Source of the DNA: an uncultured Nitrospiraceae bacterium
GTDB taxonomy: Bacteria > Nitrospirota > Thermodesulfovibrionia > Thermodesulfovibrionales > UBA6898
Assembly (NCBI GenBank): GCA_964345225.1
Contig: CAYFQB010000053.1
Coordinates: 238,572 to 262,571 of the forward strand
Length of the DNA stretch: 24,000 bases
Reading direction: 5' to 3'
The notes under the pieces were generated by a model. It made no database searches. It worked only from the letters and a program-made list of their open reading frames with translations, and had not been told where the DNA came from. Positions 1,701 through 19,863 of this stretch are shown here, in pieces. The position numbers and the translations under genes were made by a program. Each line of letters begins with the position of its first letter. Within the stretch, counting starts at the first letter, position 1.

Positions 1701-2324
1701 ATGAACCTACCCATATACAGTATAAACACTAAACTTCTTATCCCGCACATTGAAAAAATCAGAAGACTGTACTCTGAAATGGACAAAGCATACAATGAAG
1801 CTGTTTCTTACTATGGATTTGAATGTTCGGGATGCAATGAGAACTGTTGTGAAGAGAGGTTTTACCATTACACTCTTATAGAGAATATTTATCTCATTGA
1901 AGGGTTTAAAACACTTGATGTAGAAACCAGAAAAGATTTAGTGGTAACGTCTGAAGAAGTCATTCATATATATGGTCTGCATGATCTAAAGGCTATTGTA
2001 AGAAGGGTAATGTGTCCGTTGAATTTAAACGGCCTCTGCATACTCTATGAATACAGACCAATGATATGCCGACTCCACGGGATTCCTCACGTTATAAAAA
2101 GACCGGGTCAACCGGAGCAAAGTGGTCCAGGTTGTCATAAGTTTAACGAGGATATTATGCCTAAAAACCTGCCATATTTAGACTTTGACCGTACCATTTT
2201 CTACTCGAAGATGGCAGCAATTGAGATTGAAGTCAGAAGGGTCTTGGATTTTAAAGGCCGCTACAGGAAGACTGTTGCCGGGATGATAATAGATCTAGCT
2301 GACAGCATCACAAATTCTACATAA
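1701..2324 (+). CDS. YkgJ-family cysteine-cluster protein (putative Zn/Fe-chelating CxxCxxCC-type domain)
   Basis: 207-aa ORF with ECSGCNENCC near the N-terminus and downstream MCPLNLNGLCILYEYRPMICRLHG, which is typical of the YkgJ/UPF0153 family. Confidence 0.75.
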   Translation: MNLPIYSINTKLLIPHIEKIRRLYSEMDKAYNEAVSYYGFECSGCNENCCEERFYHYTLIENIYLIEGFKTLDVETRKDLVVTSEEVIHIYGLHDLKAIVRRVMCPLNLNGLCILYEYRPMICRLHGIPHVIKRPGQPEQSGPGCHKFNEDIMPKNLPYLDFDRTIFYSKMAAIEIEVRRVLDFKGRYRKTVAGMIIDLADSITNST

Positions 2325-2340: not shown

Positions 2341-2582
2341 CCCGCTCCTTTTTTGAGTCATCAGTCATTAGTCATTGGTCAATAAAAAAGTAGGCAGTTA
2401 GGAGTAAGGAGTAAATAACAAAAAGTAAGAAGTAGGCAGTAAGCAGTAAGCAGAATGAAGAATGAAGATTTAATATCTAATTTTCAATCTTCAATTTTCA
2501 ATCTTCAATTTTCTTTGCGCCGAGCGCCATGCGCCATGCGATGAGTAAACGGGCATCGTAACCATAACCGTATGATGTAACC
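2341..2582 (+). repeat. Mosaic short-tandem-repeat intergenic element, locus A
   Basis: Tandem units: gtcatYR x3.5 (2357-2381); gtaNNNa heptamers (2390-2417 and 2425-2452); aatgaag x2 (2454-2467); ttttcaatcttcaa x2.4 (2481-2513); gcgccat x2 (2524-2540). These are followed by gagtaaacgggcatcgtaaccataaccgtatgatgtaacc. The core 2446-2582 is repeated in inverted orientation at 9211-9347. Confidence 0.9.
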
Positions 2583-2725
2583 TCCAGACAAAAACGGCTT
2601 AGATAAATTGTTTTCTGATAACTAATCTAGAAAAGAATTAACATTTTAAATTAATATAAAATAGATAAAAATATTTTAGGTATATTATTATAATCATTTA
2701 TAAAAACTGATAAGAGGGGGATACC

Positions 2726-3433
2726 ATGAGCATTAGAGAAAATATATATCAGGTCATAGATTTGCTTACACCATCAAACATACTTGTGAGTGTTTTTGAC
2801 AAGAGCGGTCTTGAGGAACTGGTGAAAGGGATATTAGAGTCTAATGACGAAGCGAAATTTTACTCTACGGGCGGAACTGGAAAAAAGATTATTGAGATAT
2901 TGGGTATAAATGCCTCTAAAAATTACATATCTGTGGAGGATTTTACTGGAGCACCTGAAATGGAAGGTGGCCTTGTAAAAACACTCCATCCAAAGATACA
3001 TGCCGGACTGCTTGCAGAAAGAGGTAATCCTGCCCATGAGGAATACCTGTATAAAACACTTGCACAGATGGGCGGAAGTCCCGGAGTCTATTTCGACGTT
3101 TTTGTTGGGAATTTATATCCATTCACTTCAGTCATTTCAAAGGGAGATGCAACGCCTGAAACTGCAAGAATCAATATTGATATAGGCGGGCCTGCAATGA
3201 CAATGGCATCTGCAAAAAACTGGCATAGTATTGCTGTCCTGACCTCATCTTCCCAGTATACAGAATTTGTACAGTCTCTTAAAAACAATGACGGTAAAAT
3301 CAGTCTTGAATTGAGGTTCAACCTTACTAAGCAGGCGATGAAAGCGATCGGAGAATACAGGACAGCTATAGGCAGTTATTTTTCAGCACTTGATTTTCAG
3401 AAAGATGTTAAACCTCTTCTTGATATTAAGTAG
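2726..3433 (+). CDS. Stand-alone IMP cyclohydrolase-like protein (PurH N-terminal MGS-like domain only)
   Basis: 235-aa ORF with RBS aagaggggg. PurH N-domain blocks are present: SVFDKSGL, STGGTGKKI, FTGAPEMEGGLVKTLHPKIHAGLL, GNLYPF, NIDIGGPAMTMASAKNW. No AICAR formyltransferase domain follows. Confidence 0.75.
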   Translation: MSIRENIYQVIDLLTPSNILVSVFDKSGLEELVKGILESNDEAKFYSTGGTGKKIIEILGINASKNYISVEDFTGAPEMEGGLVKTLHPKIHAGLLAERGNPAHEEYLYKTLAQMGGSPGVYFDVFVGNLYPFTSVISKGDATPETARINIDIGGPAMTMASAKNWHSIAVLTSSSQYTEFVQSLKNNDGKISLELRFNLTKQAMKAIGEYRTAIGSYFSALDFQKDVKPLLDIK

Positions 3434-3504
3434 TTCAGGAGAAAATTTTTTACATAGTGGCCACATGACATGATTTTAACTTTGCTAACAGTATTTGCCG
3501 CTTT

Positions 3505-4011
3505 TTGGAGGTGATTGGCATTTCCTCTATACTTATAGACGGCTATAATCTTATAGGTATTTATCATGACAATCTCAGCAGACAGAGGGAGAATATTATT
3601 AATTTTCTTATAAAATACAAGAAAATTAAAGGTCATGATATTACAATTGTATTTGACGGATGGAAAACAGGCAGCCATAAGGAAGAATATTTCGCCATTG
3701 GCGGTATTAATGTTATATATTCGAGGCTCGGAGAAAAAGCTGATACCATTATAAAAAGGATTATAAGTAGAGAAAAAAGAGAATTTATTGTGATAAGCTC
3801 TGACAGAGACATTATGGCATATTCCTGGTCATGTGGTTCTGTCCCGGTTTCGTCGAATAAATTCCTGTCAATTATTGAAAATGCAGGAAAATCTCTCTCT
3901 GGTAAGTATGAACTCTTAGAGGGGGATGACCATGTTAAACATAAAAAGGGTAATCCCAGACATCCCTCCAAAAAAGAAAAAGCTTTAATAAGGGTGCTCA
4001 GAAAATTGTGA
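3505..4011 (+). CDS. NYN-domain / YacP(Rae1)-like predicted ribonuclease
   Basis: 168-aa ORF. LIDGYNLIG...ITIVFDG...VIYS...ADTIIKR...VISSDRD matches the YacP-like NYN pattern. The start is uncertain (TTG 3505 or GTG 3511). Confidence 0.7.
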   Translation: MEVIGISSILIDGYNLIGIYHDNLSRQRENIINFLIKYKKIKGHDITIVFDGWKTGSHKEEYFAIGGINVIYSRLGEKADTIIKRIISREKREFIVISSDRDIMAYSWSCGSVPVSSNKFLSIIENAGKSLSGKYELLEGDDHVKHKKGNPRHPSKKEKALIRVLRKL

Positions 4012-4871
4012 TCAGAAAAGTTATTTTAAATCTCAGGGCTGCTGATGCACTGAATCTTACCTTCCTGCTTTTTTTAATAATTATTACTTTCTTATTTCAT
4101 CAAAAAATCAACGAGCCATCTTTATTATTTTTGTATTCAGGACTGATTTTCATTCAGGTTGTACTTATAAACCTTAAAGATAAAGGAAGTTTTCTCCGTT
4201 TAGTATACGATCTGATATTCCCGATAATATCAATAATTGCCATCTTTGACAGTCTCGAAATACTTGTCCATAATATAAATCCCAGAGACATAGATCCGCT
4301 TCTTATAAAACTTGATTACCTGTTATTTAACTACCATCCAACTGTCATGCTTGAAAAGATTACGACTCCTTTATTAACTGACATAATGCAGCTTGCTTAT
4401 ACAAGTTATTATTTTCTTCCAGTAATACTGGCTATTGCACTTAAGATTGAAAAAGAAGATTCTGCATTTGACCGTTCCCTGTTCCTTATAATGTTCTGCT
4501 TTTATATTTCCTATATTGGATATATGCTAATGCCTGCTCTGGGCCCGAGATACACCATTAATCACCTGCAGAATATAGAACTCGAGGGTCTATTTATTAC
4601 CCTTCCACTACAGGAGTTTTTGAACAGACTTGAAGGTATCAAGAGAGATGCCTTCCCAAGCGGCCATACAGGTGTAGCCCTTACTGTACTGTATCTGTCC
4701 TTTCTATTCAAAAAGAGATACTTTTGGATATTCTTGCCATTTGTGGTCGTGCTTATTTTCTCAGCAGTTTACTGCAGATACCATTATGTGGTAGATGTAT
4801 TAGGAGGGGTTTTACTTGCCTTAATTACAATATCACTTGGAGAGATGTACTATGAATTCAGGAAAAAGTGA
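4008..4871 (+). CDS. PAP2-superfamily integral membrane protein (Aur1/sphingomyelin-synthase-like PAP2_3 type)
   Basis: 287-aa multi-pass hydrophobic ORF with FPSGHTGVA and CRYHYVVDVLGG, the PAP2 C2/C3-like motifs. The GTG start overlaps the upstream stop (GTGA). Confidence 0.65.
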   Translation: MIRKVILNLRAADALNLTFLLFLIIITFLFHQKINEPSLLFLYSGLIFIQVVLINLKDKGSFLRLVYDLIFPIISIIAIFDSLEILVHNINPRDIDPLLIKLDYLLFNYHPTVMLEKITTPLLTDIMQLAYTSYYFLPVILAIALKIEKEDSAFDRSLFLIMFCFYISYIGYMLMPALGPRYTINHLQNIELEGLFITLPLQEFLNRLEGIKRDAFPSGHTGVALTVLYLSFLFKKRYFWIFLPFVVVLIFSAVYCRYHYVVDVLGGVLLALITISLGEMYYEFRKK

Positions 4872-5556
4872 GTCAATATTAATAGTTGAAGACGAAAAAA
4901 AGATTTCCGAGATAATCAGGGCATATCTCGAAAAGGAAAAATACAGGGTAAAGCTTGCCGAGACCGGGCAGCAGGCCCTCAACTATCTCAAAGATCCTTT
5001 CGACCTTATTGTACTGGATCTTATGCTTCCGGATATGGATGGTGAAGAGATTTGCAGGATGATACGTAAAACTTCAGATGTGCCGATAATAATGCTAACC
5101 GCTAAAATAGATGAAGAAGACAGGATTAAGGGTCTCGGTATCGGGGCGGATGACTATGTTGTTAAACCATTCAGTCCCAGAGAGCTTGTGGCAAGGGTAA
5201 AAGCACATCTTAGAAGGGCTGGGAAATCAAAGAAAACAATATTGAGTTTTAACAGAGGTGCTCTGAGGATTAATGTTATTAATTACGAGGTCTTCAGAGA
5301 AAATAAACAGGTATTTCTAACACAAACAGAGTTCAAGATACTGCTCTCTTTTGCTGAAAATCCCGGGAGAGTCTTCTCAAGAGATCAGATAATAAATATA
5401 GTGACGGGATATGATTTCGAAGGGTATGACAGAACAATAGACGCACATGTAAAAAATTTGAGACACAAGATTGAAAAAAAATCAAGAGAGCCCGAATTCA
5501 TTAAAACAGTCTATGGTGTAGGATATAAATTCATAGGTATCCCTGATGAGAACTAA
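4852..5556 (+). CDS. OmpR/PhoB-family response regulator
   Basis: Receiver domain (ILIVEDE...DLIVLDLMLPDMDG...LTAK...DDYVVKPF) plus winged-helix output (LTQTEFKILL...VYGVGYKF). ATG 4852 with ggagag 8 nt upstream is preferred over the track's TTG 4837. The gene overlaps the end of the PAP2 gene. Confidence 0.9.
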   Translation: MNSGKSESILIVEDEKKISEIIRAYLEKEKYRVKLAETGQQALNYLKDPFDLIVLDLMLPDMDGEEICRMIRKTSDVPIIMLTAKIDEEDRIKGLGIGADDYVVKPFSPRELVARVKAHLRRAGKSKKTILSFNRGALRINVINYEVFRENKQVFLTQTEFKILLSFAENPGRVFSRDQIINIVTGYDFEGYDRTIDAHVKNLRHKIEKKSREPEFIKTVYGVGYKFIGIPDEN

Positions 5557-6916
5557 ACTGTTTCTTGCATTCTTTGCTGTAATAATAATTGCACTGATAT
5601 CAAACCTTATATACGAAAACTTTATTGTAAAGGATTTTGAAGATTACGTAAGCGGCACAAAAGAAGATAAGCTCTACTGGATCCTTGCTGCTGTTGAGGT
5701 CAACTATTCAGACGGCAAATGGGACAAAAAGTCACTCCAGGATGTTTCACACTGGGCTATGATGCTCGGTTTCGATATTAAAATATTGAACATCTCTGAT
5801 GAAGAAATATTAGATTCCAAAATAGTTATGAGAAATCTCTCTCCCTTGATGAAACGCCGGATGGAAGCGATTATTGATATTGACTCTGCTACAGGTGAGT
5901 TTGAATCTTACCCCCTTTATGTGGGAGGTAAAAGGATAGGAACAATGCTTGTTCGACATCTTAGCAGGTTTGGGAGCATCGAAGAAAAGGAGTCCATATT
6001 CAAGCAGAGGGGAAGAGATTTTCTTCTTATATCATTCGTTATAGCGGGTGGTGGGGCTTTATTTCTCTCGTTGATTTTCAGCATTTTCCTGTCAAGTCCT
6101 TTGAAAAAAATGAAAAAGGCAGTCGAATCCATGGCAAAAGGTGACTTCAGCATTCGTGTTCCCACCGGATCAAAGGATGAGATTGGAAGACTCGCTGAAA
6201 GTTTTAATTTTATGGCAGAAGCACTGCAGAGAGAAGAGGCCTTGAGGAAACATCTTACCTCTAATATTGCACATGAACTCAGAACACCACTTGCTGTTTT
6301 AAAGGCAAATGTCGAAGCTATAATTGACGGAGTCATCAATAACAATCTGACAGGTCTTCAAAATATAAGAATGGAAATCGAAAAACTGATCAGACTTGTT
6401 GAGGGTATTGAAAATATAACAAAGGCAGAGGCCAGCTTTTTCTCAAGGAGAGAGCATATAGAGATAAATCTTGCAGAATTTCTTAACGGGATTGTGGTAA
6501 AGATGACACCTCTGGCTACCGAAAAAGGCCTTGTGATGAGACTAGTAAGCGATAGAAATATCAATGTTCTAACTGATCCTGATAAACTTGAAACTATAAT
6601 TCAAAACACCCTGTCCAATGCAATTAAGAATACAGAAACAGGCGGGGTCTGGATAGATTTTGGCACTGAAAATCAGATGTTTTTTGTTGAGATCAGTGAC
6701 TCCGGAATAGGCATACCGGAGGATAAATTACATCTCGTGTTTGAAAGATTTTACAGTGGTGACGATTTAAAAGGTATAGGACTGGGGCTTGCGATAGTTA
6801 AAGAGTTAGTAAATGTTATGGGCGGCCGCATTGACCTTAAAAGCAGACTTGGAGAAGGTTCAGTATTCAGGATATGGCTGCCTTTAATTAAAAAAATTAA
6901 AGTTGCCGGTGAATAG
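5546..6916 (+). CDS. Sensor histidine kinase (two TM segments, HAMP, HisKA, HATPase_c)
   Basis: 456-aa ORF with an N-terminal TM segment, a second TM around FLLISFVIAGGGALFLSLIFSIFL, HAMP (PLKKMKKAVESMAKGDFSIRV), H-box NIAHELRTPL and G-boxes DSGIGI / GIGLGLAIV. It overlaps the response-regulator gene by 11 nt. Confidence 0.9.
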   Translation: MRTKLFLAFFAVIIIALISNLIYENFIVKDFEDYVSGTKEDKLYWILAAVEVNYSDGKWDKKSLQDVSHWAMMLGFDIKILNISDEEILDSKIVMRNLSPLMKRRMEAIIDIDSATGEFESYPLYVGGKRIGTMLVRHLSRFGSIEEKESIFKQRGRDFLLISFVIAGGGALFLSLIFSIFLSSPLKKMKKAVESMAKGDFSIRVPTGSKDEIGRLAESFNFMAEALQREEALRKHLTSNIAHELRTPLAVLKANVEAIIDGVINNNLTGLQNIRMEIEKLIRLVEGIENITKAEASFFSRREHIEINLAEFLNGIVVKMTPLATEKGLVMRLVSDRNINVLTDPDKLETIIQNTLSNAIKNTETGGVWIDFGTENQMFFVEISDSGIGIPEDKLHLVFERFYSGDDLKGIGLGLAIVKELVNVMGGRIDLKSRLGEGSVFRIWLPLIKKIKVAGE

Positions 6917-6920
6917 CATG

Positions 6921-6957
6921 CCCCGTTAGAAGGAAATAACAACATTTTCTAACGGGG
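6921..6957. repeat. REP-like palindromic hairpin, copy 3
   Basis: Perfect 11-bp inverted repeat ccccgttagaa / ttctaacgggg with a 15-nt loop, 5 nt after the kinase stop. Its reverse complement aligns with 19825-19863 at roughly 34 of 38 positions by hand. Confidence 0.75.
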
Positions 6958-7033
6958 TAAACCCGTAGAATCGTGAGTTATTCATCAATACAAACTAATT
7001 CAGGGTCAAAGCAGAATAAAATAAGAATTAAAT

Positions 7034-7300
7034 ATGCAGATACCTTTTAAAAAAACCGGGGACGGTGTACAAATAGAAATAAAGGTAGAACCCAGATCCT
7101 CTAAAAAAAGGATTTCAGGTGTTATGGATAATATACTGAAAGTAAAGCTGACTGCACCTCCTGTCGGAAATGCAGCAAACGAGCAGTTGATTGAACTTAT
7201 TTCTAAAGAAACCGGTATAAAAAAATCCAGTATTAGGATTATTAAAGGGCTAACCTCAAAAAGAAAAATAATTGAGATCAAGGGGGTTGACAAGATTTAA
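7034..7300 (+). CDS. yggU: DUF167 / YggU-family protein
   Basis: 88-aa ORF. The pattern ...VQIEIKVEPRSSKKRISGV...LKVKLTAPPVGNAANEQLIELISKETGIKKSSIRIIKGLTSKRK is characteristic of UPF0235/YggU. Confidence 0.8.
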   Translation: MQIPFKKTGDGVQIEIKVEPRSSKKRISGVMDNILKVKLTAPPVGNAANEQLIELISKETGIKKSSIRIIKGLTSKRKIIEIKGVDKI

Positions 7301-7354
7301 CATATTATTTTTTCTTCATATTTTCTTCACTAATGTTTATTAATATGTTAACAA

Positions 7355-7374
7355 AGGATTACTTAGGATTACTT
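7355..7374 (+). promoter_or_regulatory. Exact 10-bp tandem direct repeat aggattactt x2, a candidate protein-binding site
   Basis: aggattactt occurs at 7355-7364 and again at 7365-7374, 12 nt upstream of the ATG at 7387. A second direct repeat, tttcttca, lies at 7311-7318 and 7322-7329 with 11-bp spacing. Confidence 0.3.
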
Positions 7375-7386
7375 AAAGAGGTTTGA

Positions 7387-7701
7387 ATGTACAAGGCAAC
7401 GATAATATTGACTTTATTCTTTTTGCTGGCGATTGCCTTAAGTGCATATTCTGATGAAAAAAATGTTACGCCATACGGAGATTACTGTAAAGGCTGCAGT
7501 TCATATGGTACATGCAGGAATGTCCTGTCTCCCAAAAAAGCATTAAATTTGCTGAATGGATATTATGAAGAGAAAGGTTACAGTGTCAGAAAAGCACATC
7601 ACGTAGGGAGGTTTATAGAGGCCGATATATATAAACATGACAAACAGGTAGATAAAGTGATTTTTGACAGAAAAACTGGGAGGCTCAGGTCTGCTTATTG
7701 A
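7387..7701 (+). CDS. Small exported protein, PepSY-like C-terminal half (hypothetical)
   Basis: 104-aa ORF with RBS aaagagg and signal peptide MYKATIILTLFFLLAIALSAYS. It has a CxxCxxxxxC motif, and the C-terminal ...GRFIEADIYKHDKQVDKVIFDRKTGRL resembles a PepSY fold pattern. Confidence 0.55.
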   Translation: MYKATIILTLFFLLAIALSAYSDEKNVTPYGDYCKGCSSYGTCRNVLSPKKALNLLNGYYEEKGYSVRKAHHVGRFIEADIYKHDKQVDKVIFDRKTGRLRSAY

Positions 7702-7734
7702 AGATTTATATATAGAAAGTTTGAATATAAAAAA

Positions 7735-7761
7735 AGCTCCCCGGTCAATTCCCGGGGAGCT
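7735..7761. terminator. Bidirectional rho-independent terminator
   Basis: aaaaaa-gctccccgg-tcaatt-ccggggagc-tttttt. A 9-bp GC-rich stem is flanked by an A-run and a T-run, between the convergent genes ending at 7701 (+) and 7771 (-). Confidence 0.85.
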
Positions 7762-7770
7762 TTTTTAGTA

Positions 7771-9183
7771 CTAAATGTCATAATAGAGGAAAAACTCGTA
7801 TGGATGCGGTCTAACTCTCAGGGCATCCACATCCCTTAACCTCTTATAATTTATCCAGGTCTCGATCACATCAACTGTGAAGACATCACCCTTTAACAGG
7901 AATTCATTGTCAGTTTCAAGGCTGTCAAGTGCTTCCTCAAGGCTTGCAGGTAAAGCAGGTACCGAGGCAAGCTCCTCAGGTCCAAGTTCATAAATGTCCT
8001 TATCAAGAGGTTCACCTGGATGAATCTTGTTTTCTATCCCATCAAGCCCTGCCATTAACATAGCAGCAAATGCAAGGTACGGGTTACAGGAAGGGTCAGG
8101 GAATCTCACCTCTATCCTCTTTGTCTTTGGATTTGCTGAGTACATTGGAATCCGGATCCCGGCAGAACGGTTGCGGCCTGAATAGGCAAGGTTTACCGGT
8201 GCCTCAAACCCTGGTGTTAGACGCTTGTAGGAATTGGTAGTCGGACTTGTAATAGCAGCAAGTGCAGGTGCATGTTTCAGTATTCCGCCAACGTAGTAAA
8301 GTGCAAGCTCGCTCAGGCCTGCGTAACCGTTACCTGCAAAAAGTGGCTTGCCATCTTCCCAGAGGCTCTGATGGGTATGCATTCCTGAACCGTTGTCACC
8401 AAATATGGGTTTTGGCATAAATGTAACCGTCTTTCCGTGTTTTCTCGCCACATTTTTCAGAATGTATTTGAATACCATGATCTGGTCTGCCATCTGCAGA
8501 AGAGGGGCATACCTCATATCTATTTCACCCTGACCGGCAGTTGCAACCTCATGGTGCTGCTTCTCAACATATATGCCGCACTTCTGCATCTCAATGACTA
8601 CTTCATTTCTCATGTCTTCCAAACTGTCAGTTGGTGGTACAGGGAAATAACCTTCCTTATGCCTCGGCCTGTATCCGAGGTTTGGATTCTCTTCCCTGCC
8701 TGAATTCCAAATCCCCTCTTTTGAATCAACAAAATAATAACCACTATTGGCAGTCTGGTCGAAACGAATATCGTCAAAAACAAAAAATTCAGGCTCAGGG
8801 CCAAAAAAGGCTGTATCTGCAATTTTTATGGATTTCATATAATTTTCAGCCTTCTGTGCAATATATCTTGGGTCCTTCGAGTAAAATTCTTTAGTAATGG
8901 GATCAACAATATTACATGTAAGGCTCAGGGTTGAATATTCCCTGAAAGGATCCATAAACGCTGTTAAAGGATCAGGGATTATCAGCATGTCCGATGTATG
9001 TATTGCCTTCCAACCTCTTATAGACGAACCGTCAAAGCCAAGTCCTTCCTCAAAAACCTCCTCTCTAAGTTCATCCACTGGCACCGAGAAGTGCTGCCAG
9101 ATGCCAGGCAGGTCAAGGAACTTAAAATCAACGATTATTGCCTTGTTTTCCTGTGCAAACTTGATTACATCTTTAGGTGTCAT
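7771..9183 (-). CDS. glnA: Glutamine synthetase, type I
   Basis: 470-aa ORF with RBS ggagga. GS-I blocks are present throughout ([57 protein letters not shown]). Confidence 0.95.
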
Positions 9184-9210
9184 CTCATCCTCCTCTAAGT
9201 AATTTTATAA

Positions 9211-9375
9211 GGTTACGTCTAACGGTTACGGTAACGACGCCCGTTTACTCATCGCATGGCGCATGGCGCTCGGCGCAAAGAAAATTGAAGATTGAAAATT
9301 GAATATTGAAAATTAGATATTAAATCTTCATTCTTCATTCTGCTTACTCCTTACTTCCTACTTTTTAATTCTCAC
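9211..9375 (-). repeat. Mosaic short-tandem-repeat intergenic element, locus B (inverted copy of locus A)
   Basis: The reverse complement of 9211-9347 aligns with 2446-2582 over 137 bp with about 8 mismatches by hand alignment. 9348-9375 continues with tccttac / ttcctac units. It lies between glnB and glnA. Confidence 0.9.
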
Positions 9376-9387
9376 TTTATACTGGTT

Positions 9388-9747
<360 letters not shown>

Positions 9748-9756
9748 CTATATACA

Positions 9757-9870
9757 CCTTACTCCTTACAAATCGCATAGCGCAAAGCGCTTGGCGCATA
9801 GCGTTATTTTTTACTCCTAACTCCTCACTTTTTACTTCTTACTTCTTGCCTTTACCCGCCTCAGGCGGGT
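9757..9870 (-). repeat. Mosaic short-tandem-repeat element, locus D, plus GC hairpin, in the glnB upstream region
   Basis: Contains ccttactccttac; cgcatagcg...cgcatagcg flanking aaagcgctt; and ttactcctaactcctcactttttacttcttacttctt. A 7-bp hairpin acccgcc-tca-ggcgggt follows at 9854-9870. The word set matches loci A, B and C. Confidence 0.75.
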
Positions 9871-10014: not shown

Positions 10015-10047
10015 GAAAAAATAAAAAGTCCCTGTGTATAAGGGACT
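10015..10047 (-). terminator. Rho-independent terminator of the 10077-10460 gene
   Basis: On the minus strand agtccct-tatacac-agggact is followed by tttttatttttt, about 30 nt after the stop. Confidence 0.65.
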
Positions 10048-10076
10048 CTTTAAGCAGGTATGGGTTGTGAATTATA

Positions 10077-10628: not shown

Positions 10629-10662
10629 CTAACCCAAAAAATGCGTTTGAAGCATGTATACA
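10629..10662. repeat. Solo copy of the left end of the 14199-14340 element
   Basis: ctaacccaaaaaatgcgtttgaagcatgtataca compares with ctaacccccaaaatgcgtttaaagcaggtataca at 14199-14232. I found no matching right end nearby. Confidence 0.6.
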
Positions 10663-10708
10663 AGCAGTCTACGACTCTTAGATAATGTGCCTTAGTACCA
10701 TAAAAAGT

Positions 10709-14198: not shown

Positions 14199-14340
14199 CT
14201 AACCCCCAAAATGCGTTTAAAGCAGGTATACATGTTGTGTAGTTGGGCATGTTTCTTGAACGGACATAGGGAGCGAAAGGGTTATGTCCAACTACATAAT
14301 TTACCAATTCTTTTTATACTGAAAAGCATTTTTGGGTTAA
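14199..14340. mobile_element. MITE-like 142-bp structured element with imperfect terminal inverted repeats
   Basis: The ends ctaacccccaaaatgcgttt and aaaagcatttttgggttaa are complementary at about 16 of 19 positions. Internal inverted repeats are tgtgtagttgg / ccaactacata (14236-46 / 14288-98) and ggacata / tatgtcc (14262-68 / 14283-89). TA dinucleotides lie on both sides (14200-01 and 14338-39). The element fills the gap between the recD2 stop and the hgcB stop. Confidence 0.55.
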
Positions 14341-18342: not shown

Positions 18343-18727
18343 CCCTTTACTCCTAGCACCATTTGTACAATTTTCAATTTCTGATTGTGCATGGCGTTCT
18401 TTTTACTTCCTACTGCTTACTTCCTACTTTTTACTCTTTGAGAACTAAAAGGTTACGTCATACGGTTACGGTAACGATGCCCGTTTCGGTTATCGTCTAT
18501 CGGTTACGTGTTTATTTAGTTTCTCTGGTTTCTCTGGTTTCTCTGGTTTATCTGGTTTATCTATTTCGCCCTGCTCCTTACCCCCTGCCCTGTTAGTCCT
18601 GAGCCTGTCGAAGGATTACTCCTCACTCCTCACTCCTTACTCCTCACTGTTTATTCTTTTTATTTAGTGCTTACTGCTTACTGCCTACTGCTTACTCCCC
18701 GCTCCTTGCCCCCTGCTCTTTGCTGGT
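18343..18727. repeat. Mosaic short-tandem-repeat element, locus C, filling the whole gap between convergent genes
   Basis: Contains ttacttcctac-type units (about 18403-18436). The block ggttacgtcatacggttacggtaacgatgcccgttt (18451-18486) matches 9211-9246 with 3 mismatches. Five 9-mers (a/g)gttt(c/a)tct lie at 18518-18562, 7-mers ctcactc/cttactc at 18615-18648, and 7-mers gcttact/gcctact at 18669-18696. Two related C-rich words lie at 18568-18592 and 18697-18723. Confidence 0.9.
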
Positions 18728-19638: not shown

Positions 19639-19824
19639 GCTCTAACCTTTCATTCAATATATTTCATTAGATAGGTGGGCATATTGCATTTCTTTATCCT
19701 TTAAGTATATTTAAAGAAGAATCCCCTATATTTTTTTTATCATATTAATCATGACTTGTCTAATTAAATTATTATATTACCTTATAATTAAAACTTTAGA
19801 TTAATTAAAAATAAAGGCACTTTA

Positions 19825-19863
19825 CCCCGTTTAGAAAGTGTTGTTATTTTCTTCTAACGGAGG
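19825..19863. repeat. REP-like palindromic hairpin, copy 4 (degenerate, opposite orientation to copy 3)
   Basis: ccccgtttagaaagtgttgttattttcttctaacggagg compares with the reverse complement of 6921-6957, ccccgttagaaaatgttgttatttccttctaacgggg. The flanks tttac... and ...gtttactt are shared with copy 1. Confidence 0.65.

Follow-up and report, generated by a model that had tools for sequence, protein, structure and literature searches.

An inverted pair of modular heptamer-based intergenic repeats around a glnA-containing gene block in an uncultured Nitrospiraceae bacterium

The window analysed here is a stretch of 24,000 nt of DNA from an uncultured Nitrospiraceae bacterium (contig CAYFQB010000053.1, positions 238,572 to 262,571 of the forward strand). 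Two copies of a composite intergenic repeat, designated arm A and arm B, lie in it in inverted orientation on either side of a gene block that includes glnA. The tail of arm A ends 142 nt before the ATG of the AICARFT-like (purH-like) gene at 2726, and 26 nt lie between the end of the arm B tail and the glnA ATG (9183). Open reading frame (ORF) and Pfam annotation of the window agreed with the gene content and strands given in a first-pass annotation that had been made from the letters alone. Loci and contigs outside the window are denoted by L numbers. The features of the locus are as follows.

1701..2324, plus strand: CxxCxxCC (ykgJ-like) gene, upstream of arm A.
2356..2583, plus strand: arm A, full-length composite repeat, in the 401-nt spacer that separates the ykgJ-like gene from the AICARFT-like gene.
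2356-2381, plus strand: (AGTCATT)~4, first module of arm A.
2388-2453, plus strand: AGTAAGG/AGTAGGC-type heptamers of arm A.
2452-2468, plus strand: (GAATGAA)2 of arm A, followed by a 15-nt spacer.
2479-2513, plus strand: (TTTCAAT/AATTTTC)5 of arm A.
2516-2540, plus strand: (GCGCCAT)~3.6 of arm A.
Ending at 2554, plus strand: non-tandem core of arm A, GCGATGAGTAAACGGGC.
2555-2583, plus strand: tail of arm A, ATCGTAACCATAACCGTATGATGTAACCT.
2445..2554 (plus) and 9239-9348 (minus): near-identical stretch of arms A and B, 110 nt with one mismatch.
2726-3433, plus strand: AICARFT-like (purH-like) gene, 235 aa, at the head of the plus-strand genes of the block (2726..7701).
3505-4011, plus strand: NYN_YacP, in the enclosed block.
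4008-4871, plus strand: PAP2, in the enclosed block.
4837-5556, plus strand: OmpR-type response regulator, in the enclosed block.
5546-6916, plus strand: HAMP histidine kinase, in the enclosed block.
7034-7300, plus strand: YggU/DUF167, in the enclosed block.
7387-7701, plus strand: ORF of 104 aa, in the enclosed block.
7771..9183, minus strand: glnA, glutamine synthetase type I, 470 aa, the sole minus-strand gene within the block.
9210..9370, minus strand: arm B, the same composite without the 5' (AGTCATT)n, in the 204-nt glnB-glnA spacer.
9388..9726, minus strand: glnB (P-II), upstream of arm B.
10022..10052, minus strand: terminator-like hairpin of 12 pairs with a T run, after an ORF of 127 aa.

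The position of this last hairpin suggests that glnB and glnA form a transcription unit of their own with a start downstream of it.

Read on the sense strand, the two arms share one module order: AGTAAGG/AGTAGGC-type heptamers, (GAATGAA)2, a 15-nt spacer, (TTTCAAT)5, (GCGCCAT)3-4, the core GCGATGAGTAAACGGGC and a tail NTCGTWACCRTAACCGTNNGAYGTAACCT. The (GAATGAA)2...(TTTCAAT)5 module forms a hairpin and lies inside the 110-nt near-identical stretch. Arrays of tandem 7-nt units were detected with Tandem Repeats Finder at 2356-2540, 9253-9341, 9774-9847 and 18399-18723. Many of the purine-rich heptamers (AGTAAGG, AGTAGGC and similar) contain a Shine-Dalgarno-like AGGAG followed by TAA.

The inverted pair had been described in the first-pass annotation, by hand alignment, as 137 bp with about eight mismatches clustered mostly in the last 30 bp. 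An ungapped comparison of 2446-2582 with reverse-complemented 9211-9347 gives seven mismatches, six of which fall at offsets 109-130 of the 137 nt, and exact alignment extended the similarity beyond what had been seen by hand. The best local alignment (2423-2583 against 9370-9210) is gapless, covers 161 nt at 93.2% identity and scores 237 bits; by repeat finding, 174 nt were matched at 90% (2410-2583 and 9210-9383). The longest exact runs common to both arms measure 65 nt (2490-2554) and 44 nt (2445-2488). The top inverted match in 40 dinucleotide-preserving shuffles reached at most 41.7 bits, so that the similarity is beyond chance. Inverted repeats of 161 nt at 93% identity thus flank a segment, with the arms separated by 6,626 nt. 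That the pair arose as an artefact of one assembly is contradicted by a short-read contig from an independent run (L002, ERR2564001), which contains the inner block with the A-specific tail by the purH-like gene and the B-specific tail by glnA.

Further copies of the repeat were sought by scanning metagenome contigs for exact matches to the invariant 24-mer GCGCCATGCGATGAGTAAACGGGC; the window region was apparently masked in this collection. Nine loci were recovered, four elsewhere on the source contig JABAOC010000356.1 and five in the sibling assembly JABAOH, and the core is therefore present at nine further sites rather than being specific to the bracketed block. A module of ~85 nt, AACGCCATGCGCCGAGCGCCAT-GCGCCATGCGATGAGTAAACGGGC-NTCGTTACCGTAACCGTNNGACGTAACCTTTTAGTTC, is shared by all nine, with AGTAAGG-type heptamers ahead of it in every case. 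The 837-kb contig JABAOC010000356.1 carries at least six full and two partial copies, all in spacers. By crude ORF calling, eight of the ten copies with determinable orientation lie on the sense strand upstream of a gene (A, B, L123, L124 at uvrA, L125, L128 between glmU and glmS, L129 and L130; an ArsR-like gene is among the downstream genes). The copy in L126 is antisense, and the one in L122 points at a gene on the opposite strand, towards its 3' end. The arms are best classed as a new family of a known kind, dispersed heptamer-based intergenic repeats. Its other members in the window are listed below; in each of the four window spacers that contain heptamers, these have the same orientation as the adjacent upstream gene.

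9769..9850, minus strand: third, degenerate copy, with GCGCYAT-type heptamers after AGTAAGA/AGGAGTT heptamers, upstream of glnB and in sense orientation.
18394..18725, minus strand: family cluster between the convergent genes DoxX (minus) and nucleoside transporter (plus), downstream of DoxX.
18399-18435 and 18618-18723: heptamer arrays of this cluster.
18450-18486: tail module of this cluster.
18510-18562: 9-mer array of this cluster.

The 9-nt tandem array (GTTTCTCTG / AAACCAGAG, ~5 copies) at 18510-18562 was also seen in the upstream parts of L122 and L129. Because several loci combine it with the heptamer family, it is apparently a further module of that repeat system. In three of 11 family copies (L122, L124 and L126) a 30-nt hairpin, CCTGTAAAGTAGAAAAGCTTACTTGACAGG, is inserted exactly after ACGGGC; it would represent a nested small insertion, reminiscent of the very small mobile repeats in heptamer arrays.

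Within this degenerate family, arms A and B are each other's nearest relatives. They are identical at 178 of 223 aligned positions, compared with ~55-65% identity to each of nine other copies, and the (GAATGAA)2...(TTTCAAT)5 module is present only in A and B among the aligned copies. Their tails are different family variants, that of A resembling L127 and that of B resembling L128. The pair is therefore a mosaic, in which ~110 nt with one mismatch are joined to tails as diverged as those of unrelated copies. The recent duplication or gene conversion that had been suggested for the pair is supported by these observations, and we infer from the aligned copies that the near-identity arose either by recent site-to-site copying with a boundary inside the element or as a gene-conversion tract. 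Local homogenization is not unique to this locus, because other close pairs exist on the same contig, such as L124 and L126 (83%, both with the hairpin insert).

The bracketed block had been read in the first-pass annotation as a possible invertible, operon-swapping segment. The geometry of that proposal stands, since each copy lies between cistrons in sense orientation and recombination of the two would trade the upstream partners with polarity kept; inversion itself is unsupported. The arms belong to a dispersed, oriented family, a single orientation is seen, and comparison with related assemblies, set beforehand as the test of the proposal, returned that orientation throughout the available contigs and relatives. 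The exact ykgJ-like and GlnB proteins each occur on three long contigs, always in the orders ykgJ-like>purH-like>NYN and glnB>glnA, and no alternative arrangement was present among these three contigs and two relatives, L117 and L119, all of which are assemblies. The short-read contig L002 was rejected as a test of orientation, as it breaks inside both arms and is uninformative in this respect.

The names attached to homologues of the kinase, such as Nitrospirota and Ca. Sulfobium, put the organism within Nitrospirota. In L119 (kinase 68% identical) the order is POR-Robl-Arf-ykgJ-like-purH-like-...-PAP2-RR-HK-YggU-ORF (RR, response regulator; HK, histidine kinase), followed by glnA(-)-glnB(-)-amt, in the orientation of the window. 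L117 (kinase 70%) has purH-like...HK-YggU-ORF followed by glnA(-)-glnB(-), again oriented as in the window. Neither glnA beside the ykgJ-like gene nor glnB beside the purH-like gene was found in any relative examined, and in more distant relatives only the NYN-PAP2-RR-HK-YggU core is kept, with different flanks. The two spacers of L119 measure 83 and 42 nt and are element-free, against 401 and 204 nt for their counterparts in the window. The glnB-glnA spacer of L117 (L117:14140-14227) is 88 nt long, is likewise free of the element and carries another palindromic simple repeat (CAGTGA/CAGTGT ... CTGACA), so that this spacer has been colonized independently by short repeats across lineages. The presence of the element is therefore lineage-specific, the orthologous spacers of 42-88 nt in L119 and L117 being without it. 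Because these relatives combine the same order and orientation with short element-free spacers, the arms were added to a pre-existing orientation. Pfam scans of 30 ORFs of the 24-kb window gave no recombinase, invertase, integrase, resolvase or transposase domain. An attachment site at a tRNA or tmRNA was rejected, there being no tRNA in the window.

We consider it likely that A and B are oriented copies of a dispersed modular intergenic repeat and that the block between them is stable, with no programmed switch. A family member comprises purine-rich heptamer runs, GCGCCAT heptamers, the core (GCGCCATGCGATGAGTAAACGGGC) and the tail (NTCGTWACCRTAACCGTNNGAYGTAACC). Copies are scattered over chromosome spacers, with the purine-rich strand mostly the sense strand of the downstream gene. 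As the ykgJ-like/purH-like unit (plus) and the glnB/glnA unit (minus) converge, one copy per spacer would automatically yield an inverted pair, and the inverted geometry of A and B would thus follow from copies in their usual orientation sitting in the spacers of two converging units. Both copies entered spacers that in relatives are short and free of repeats. One arm would then have been copied recently into the other site, or gene conversion would have taken place between A and B, the tails being kept as different variants, and heptamer counts would subsequently drift through replication slippage. The block would be a stable part of the chromosome, and any occasional homologous inversion through the 65- and 44-nt runs an accident of its repeat content. 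The repeat may function through factor binding at the 5' untranslated region (UTR), acting on translation or mRNA stability, or may spread purely selfishly.

Several points weigh against this interpretation. The orientation bias of eight in ten is only suggestive (two-sided binomial p ~0.1), and the family census is partial, comprising exact 24-mer matches only. The three long contigs may be one assembly deposited repeatedly, which makes them weak independent evidence on orientation, and a minority orientation would not show in a consensus assembly. No mechanism of spread, such as a transposase or a target-site duplication, was recognized. The A/B mosaic implies past exchange, either between the arms or between one arm and a third copy, and hence arms that are recombinationally competent.

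A role as a cis-acting RNA element of 5' UTRs or intercistronic regions, by which the ribosome, S1, CsrA or a Csp-like factor tunes translation or mRNA stability, is compatible with the dispersed-repeat interpretation and may be entertained tentatively; the glnA and purH-like operons would in that case be regulated in common, which would account for the similarity of A and B. It is favoured by the sense-strand bias upstream of start codons, by the end of arm B only 26 nt before the glnA ATG and by the Shine-Dalgarno-like AGGAG within the heptamers, and a comparable proposal exists for the TAACTGA heptamers found directly upstream of start codons in Beggiatoaceae (PMC4679880). However, the downstream genes are functionally unrelated (glnA, purH-like, glmS, uvrA, ArsR-like) and the orthologous spacers of the relatives work without the element, and for these reasons a regulatory role is only possible. 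Some copies, moreover, are antisense or lie between convergent genes, and neither an Rfam match nor covariation accompanies the unexceptional folds. A known RNA family was rejected after Rfam searches gave no match in the window at the gathering threshold and only noise on arm A at E<=10. A structured RNA was rejected because arm A and the arm B spacer fold no better than shuffled sequences (z of -0.23 and -1.06). Promoters or terminators carried by the arms were rejected as well, consensus scans being at background with no notable sites in the arms.

Low-frequency homologous inversion of the RecA type between the arms is unlikely. In a minority of cells glnB would then read into the purH-like/two-component genes and the ykgJ-like unit into glnA. 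The homology of the arms (161 nt at 93%, with exact runs of 65 and 44 nt) exceeds the minimum for bacterial homologous recombination, and the A/B mosaic points to past exchange involving them. Transcriptional polarity would be preserved, so that an inversion need not be strongly counter-selected. Against this, a single orientation was seen at the assembly level in every available contig and relative.

Another alternative concerns the tail, since the tail 21-mer forms the right arm of an intergenic palindrome that occurs across phyla. The relevant positions are the following.

2549..2569, plus strand: 21-mer ACGGGCATCGTAACCATAACC, right arm of the palindromic intergenic element.
9224-9244 and 18464-18484, minus strand: other window copies of the tail 21-mer.
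L006:2906-3026, minus strand, and L019:1895-2015, plus strand: examples of the palindromic element (matches listed as L006-L115).
L015, L055, L074 and L091, contrasted with L006, L019 and L073: examples of the two mirror forms of the inner segment.

The tail 21-mer ACGGGCRTCGTWACCRTAACC occurs at at least 110 loci in a 596-Gb genome collection, compared with ~2 chance matches expected by our own estimate from the information content of the pattern. The matches listed include many Omnitrophota (single-cell genomes among them), Desulfobacteraceae and other Desulfobacterota, Nitrospirota, Planctomycetota, a Gemmatimonadota chromosome, Bacteroidota, Leptolyngbya (Cyanobacteria), Zixibacteria, WOR-3 and Fibrobacterota; two (L042 and L085) lie inside GC-rich ORFs and look like the expected chance matches. 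In 81 of the 110 matches listed, a ~130-nt palindrome is present, GGTTAnGGTAACGAAGCCCGTATCG ...~50-70 nt... CGAAACGGGCATCGTAACCGTAACC, with the 21-mer as its right arm. Among these matches the element lies between genes and can run with or against them, the same sense being in excess by ~2:1. It has an internal 6-7-nt periodicity, is multicopy within assemblies and has been kept at one site that is orthologous between two species (81.6% identity over 2.5 kb). The element carries no gene of its own: flank conservation ends after ~75 nt and no associated gene was found within 2.5 kb, on which grounds it was rejected as the end of an insertion sequence (IS) or transposon. Rfam gave nothing relevant at the gathering threshold for 14 loci with the full palindrome. 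As to a plasmid or phage vehicle, the palindrome had no blastn match in PLSDB or INPHARED and the exact 21-mer was absent from IMG/VR; arm A itself gave a single 38-nt low-complexity match in plasmid and virus collections. Searches of the searchable literature with the palindrome strings and accessions returned no relevant paper. No left arm was found in the window within three mismatches, the three copies there being right arms only; this genome therefore carries a derived half-element fused to the GCGCCAT module.

Next to the GCCCGT/ACGGGC hexamer, each outer arm of the palindrome has an A, on one and the same strand, and any hairpin would therefore contain a conserved A/A mismatch. In an alignment of 56 elements the ~60-nt inner segment takes two mirror forms (36 forward, 9 reversed, 10 ambiguous), with no change in the outer arms; the inner boundary bases therefore co-vary, as A...A or T...T. 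An RNAalifold consensus of the 56 pan-phylum elements had seven invariant pairs and no compensatory changes. The two inner orientations and the strand-specific A/A asymmetry would be expected if a conserved trans-acting machine acted at GCCCGT/ACGGGC. The tails would then be half-sites of an undescribed palindromic element (GGTAACGAAGCCCGT ... ACGGGCATCGTAACCGTAACC) and A and B its inverted substrates, so that the block could be flipped; candidates for the machine would be a recombinase, a single-strand transposase or replication template-switching at the hairpin. We regard this as quite improbable.

A programmed, inverton-like switch, in which a site-specific recombinase recognizing a sequence within the arms, such as the ACGGGC/GCCCGT-centred tail, would rewire nitrogen-regulated expression, is very improbable. 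It could draw on the fact that the arms carry, in inverted orientation, copies of a motif that makes up ~130-nt palindromes in other phyla, the inner segment of which occurs in both orientations, and on the nature of glnB and glnA as regulatory targets, the switching of which would give a phenotype. On the other hand, there is no recombinase gene in the 24 kb, the relatives are entirely without the arms and one orientation is observed. The motif is also found at many genome sites in both orientations, and an active switch would therefore scramble the chromosome, whereas synteny is conserved. Finally, although repeat-rich spacers are error-prone and the sibling contig L120 has many frameshifted genes suggestive of noisy long reads, a collapsed or duplicated repeat placed by the assembler can be dismissed with near certainty, as the separate short-read run has both copy-specific tails beside the right genes and the copies differ at 11 positions, which collapse would not yield.

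The STRR heptanucleotide tandem repeats of cyanobacteria form short intergenic arrays. TAACTGA direct repeats are known from marine Beggiatoaceae, Cyanobacteria and Bacteroidetes and often directly precede start codons; a post-transcriptional role has been proposed for them but not shown (MacGregor, 2015; PMC4679880). The present family resembles both in its arrays of two to six 7-nt units, which are intergenic, numerous per genome, scattered among lineages and linked to no known mobilizing enzyme. It differs in its units (AGTAAGG, GAATGAA, TTTCAAT and GCGCCAT) and in that the arrays are chained in a fixed order with a non-tandem core and tail of ~60 nt, giving composites of 160-250 nt that are copied whole. 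Multicopy intergenic sequences of Geobacter metallireducens consist of three to five tandem units of 7-9 nt, often paired on opposite strands with variable spacing; there are dozens per genome, no function is assigned to them and the sister species lacks them (Aklujkar, 2009; PMC2700814). They share with the arms an intergenic, multicopy arrangement of tandem heptamer units in inverted pairs, but their consensus units are GGGACCG, MTYCTGA and GTTGCTYN and there is no evidence in them of the ACGGGCATCGTAACC core. The 'class 4' multicopy sites of Geobacter were rejected as a match, being a different, pentanucleotide-based element.

Like REP, BIME, REPIN and MITE sequences, the family is non-coding, extragenic and multicopy, and its pan-phylum form, with two inverted ~25-nt arms around a ~60-nt spacer, is REPIN-like. 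No RAYT or transposase could be linked to it, its window copies are one-armed and its 21-mer is identical across phyla; REPINs are, to our knowledge, lineage-specific. No terminal inverted repeat or target-site duplication of the MITE kind was recognizable at the ends of A and B, as judged by eye only. As in invertons (fimS, hin/gin, Bacteroides invertons, shufflons), inverted repeats bracket a segment whose inversion would change promoter-gene pairing. Invertons, however, have a nearby recombinase, short specific inverted repeats and both orientations, whereas here the repeats are generic members of a family, one orientation is seen and the window holds no recombinase. The generic inverted pair, with more than 40 nt of perfect identity, could support rare RecA-dependent inversion, as in inversions at rRNA operons, IS copies and REP clusters; the repeats in those inversions are usually of kilobase length, in contrast to 161 nt at 93% here, where no inverted isoform was observed.

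The locus carries a caution, namely that in genomes rich in oriented intergenic repeats converging operons can become bracketed by long inverted repeats without any switch. It also documents, in an anaerobic Nitrospirota-like genome, a modular heptamer-based repeat family that colonizes 5' UTRs, the one of glnA among them, and ties this family to a short sequence that is identical letter for letter across very distant phyla. Should the cross-phylum element prove functional or mobile, it would offer a new handle on the spread and maintenance of tiny non-coding elements in uncultivated bacteria.

Some minor observations were made on the block and its surroundings. Residues 162-221 of the 235-aa purH-like product match only the first 59 of 311 positions of the AICARFT_IMPCHas profile, and the short form is kept at the head of the NYN-PAP2-RR-HK cluster in relatives (L116, L117 and L119). 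Given this partial match and the conservation of the short form, the gene is unlikely to encode a bifunctional PurH. In a more distant relative (L131:5153-7634, L132:270-2751), a truncated phage-integrase gene and an AbiEi-like gene precede NYN-PAP2-RR-HK-YggU, and the left flank of the conserved cluster is therefore subject to genomic turnover. The seeming absence of genes at 21-24 kb has a simple cause, a 950-aa ORF that runs off the window. Short-read (Logan) contigs from the same organism end inside the arms or heptamer arrays (L002 at ~2530 and ~9237, L004 at ~2433); these repeats therefore fragment de Bruijn assemblies, and such breakage may explain why many pan-phylum copies lie at contig ends.

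Two other kinds of small repeat were seen in the window. A 40-nt hairpin sequence, CCGTTAGAAGGAAATAACAACATTTTCTAACGGGG, occurs twice in inverted orientation at 92.5% identity (6923-6961, directly after the kinase stop codon, and 19821-19860) and is probably a second small dispersed family, terminator-like in kind. A 43-nt direct repeat, CTAACCCnAAAAATGCGTTTnAAGCAnGTATACA, is 81% identical between 10629-10671 and 14199-14241, just downstream of the radical SAM and RecD2 genes, which are unrelated to each other; a related string is present in L126, which makes it a third dispersed repeat type.

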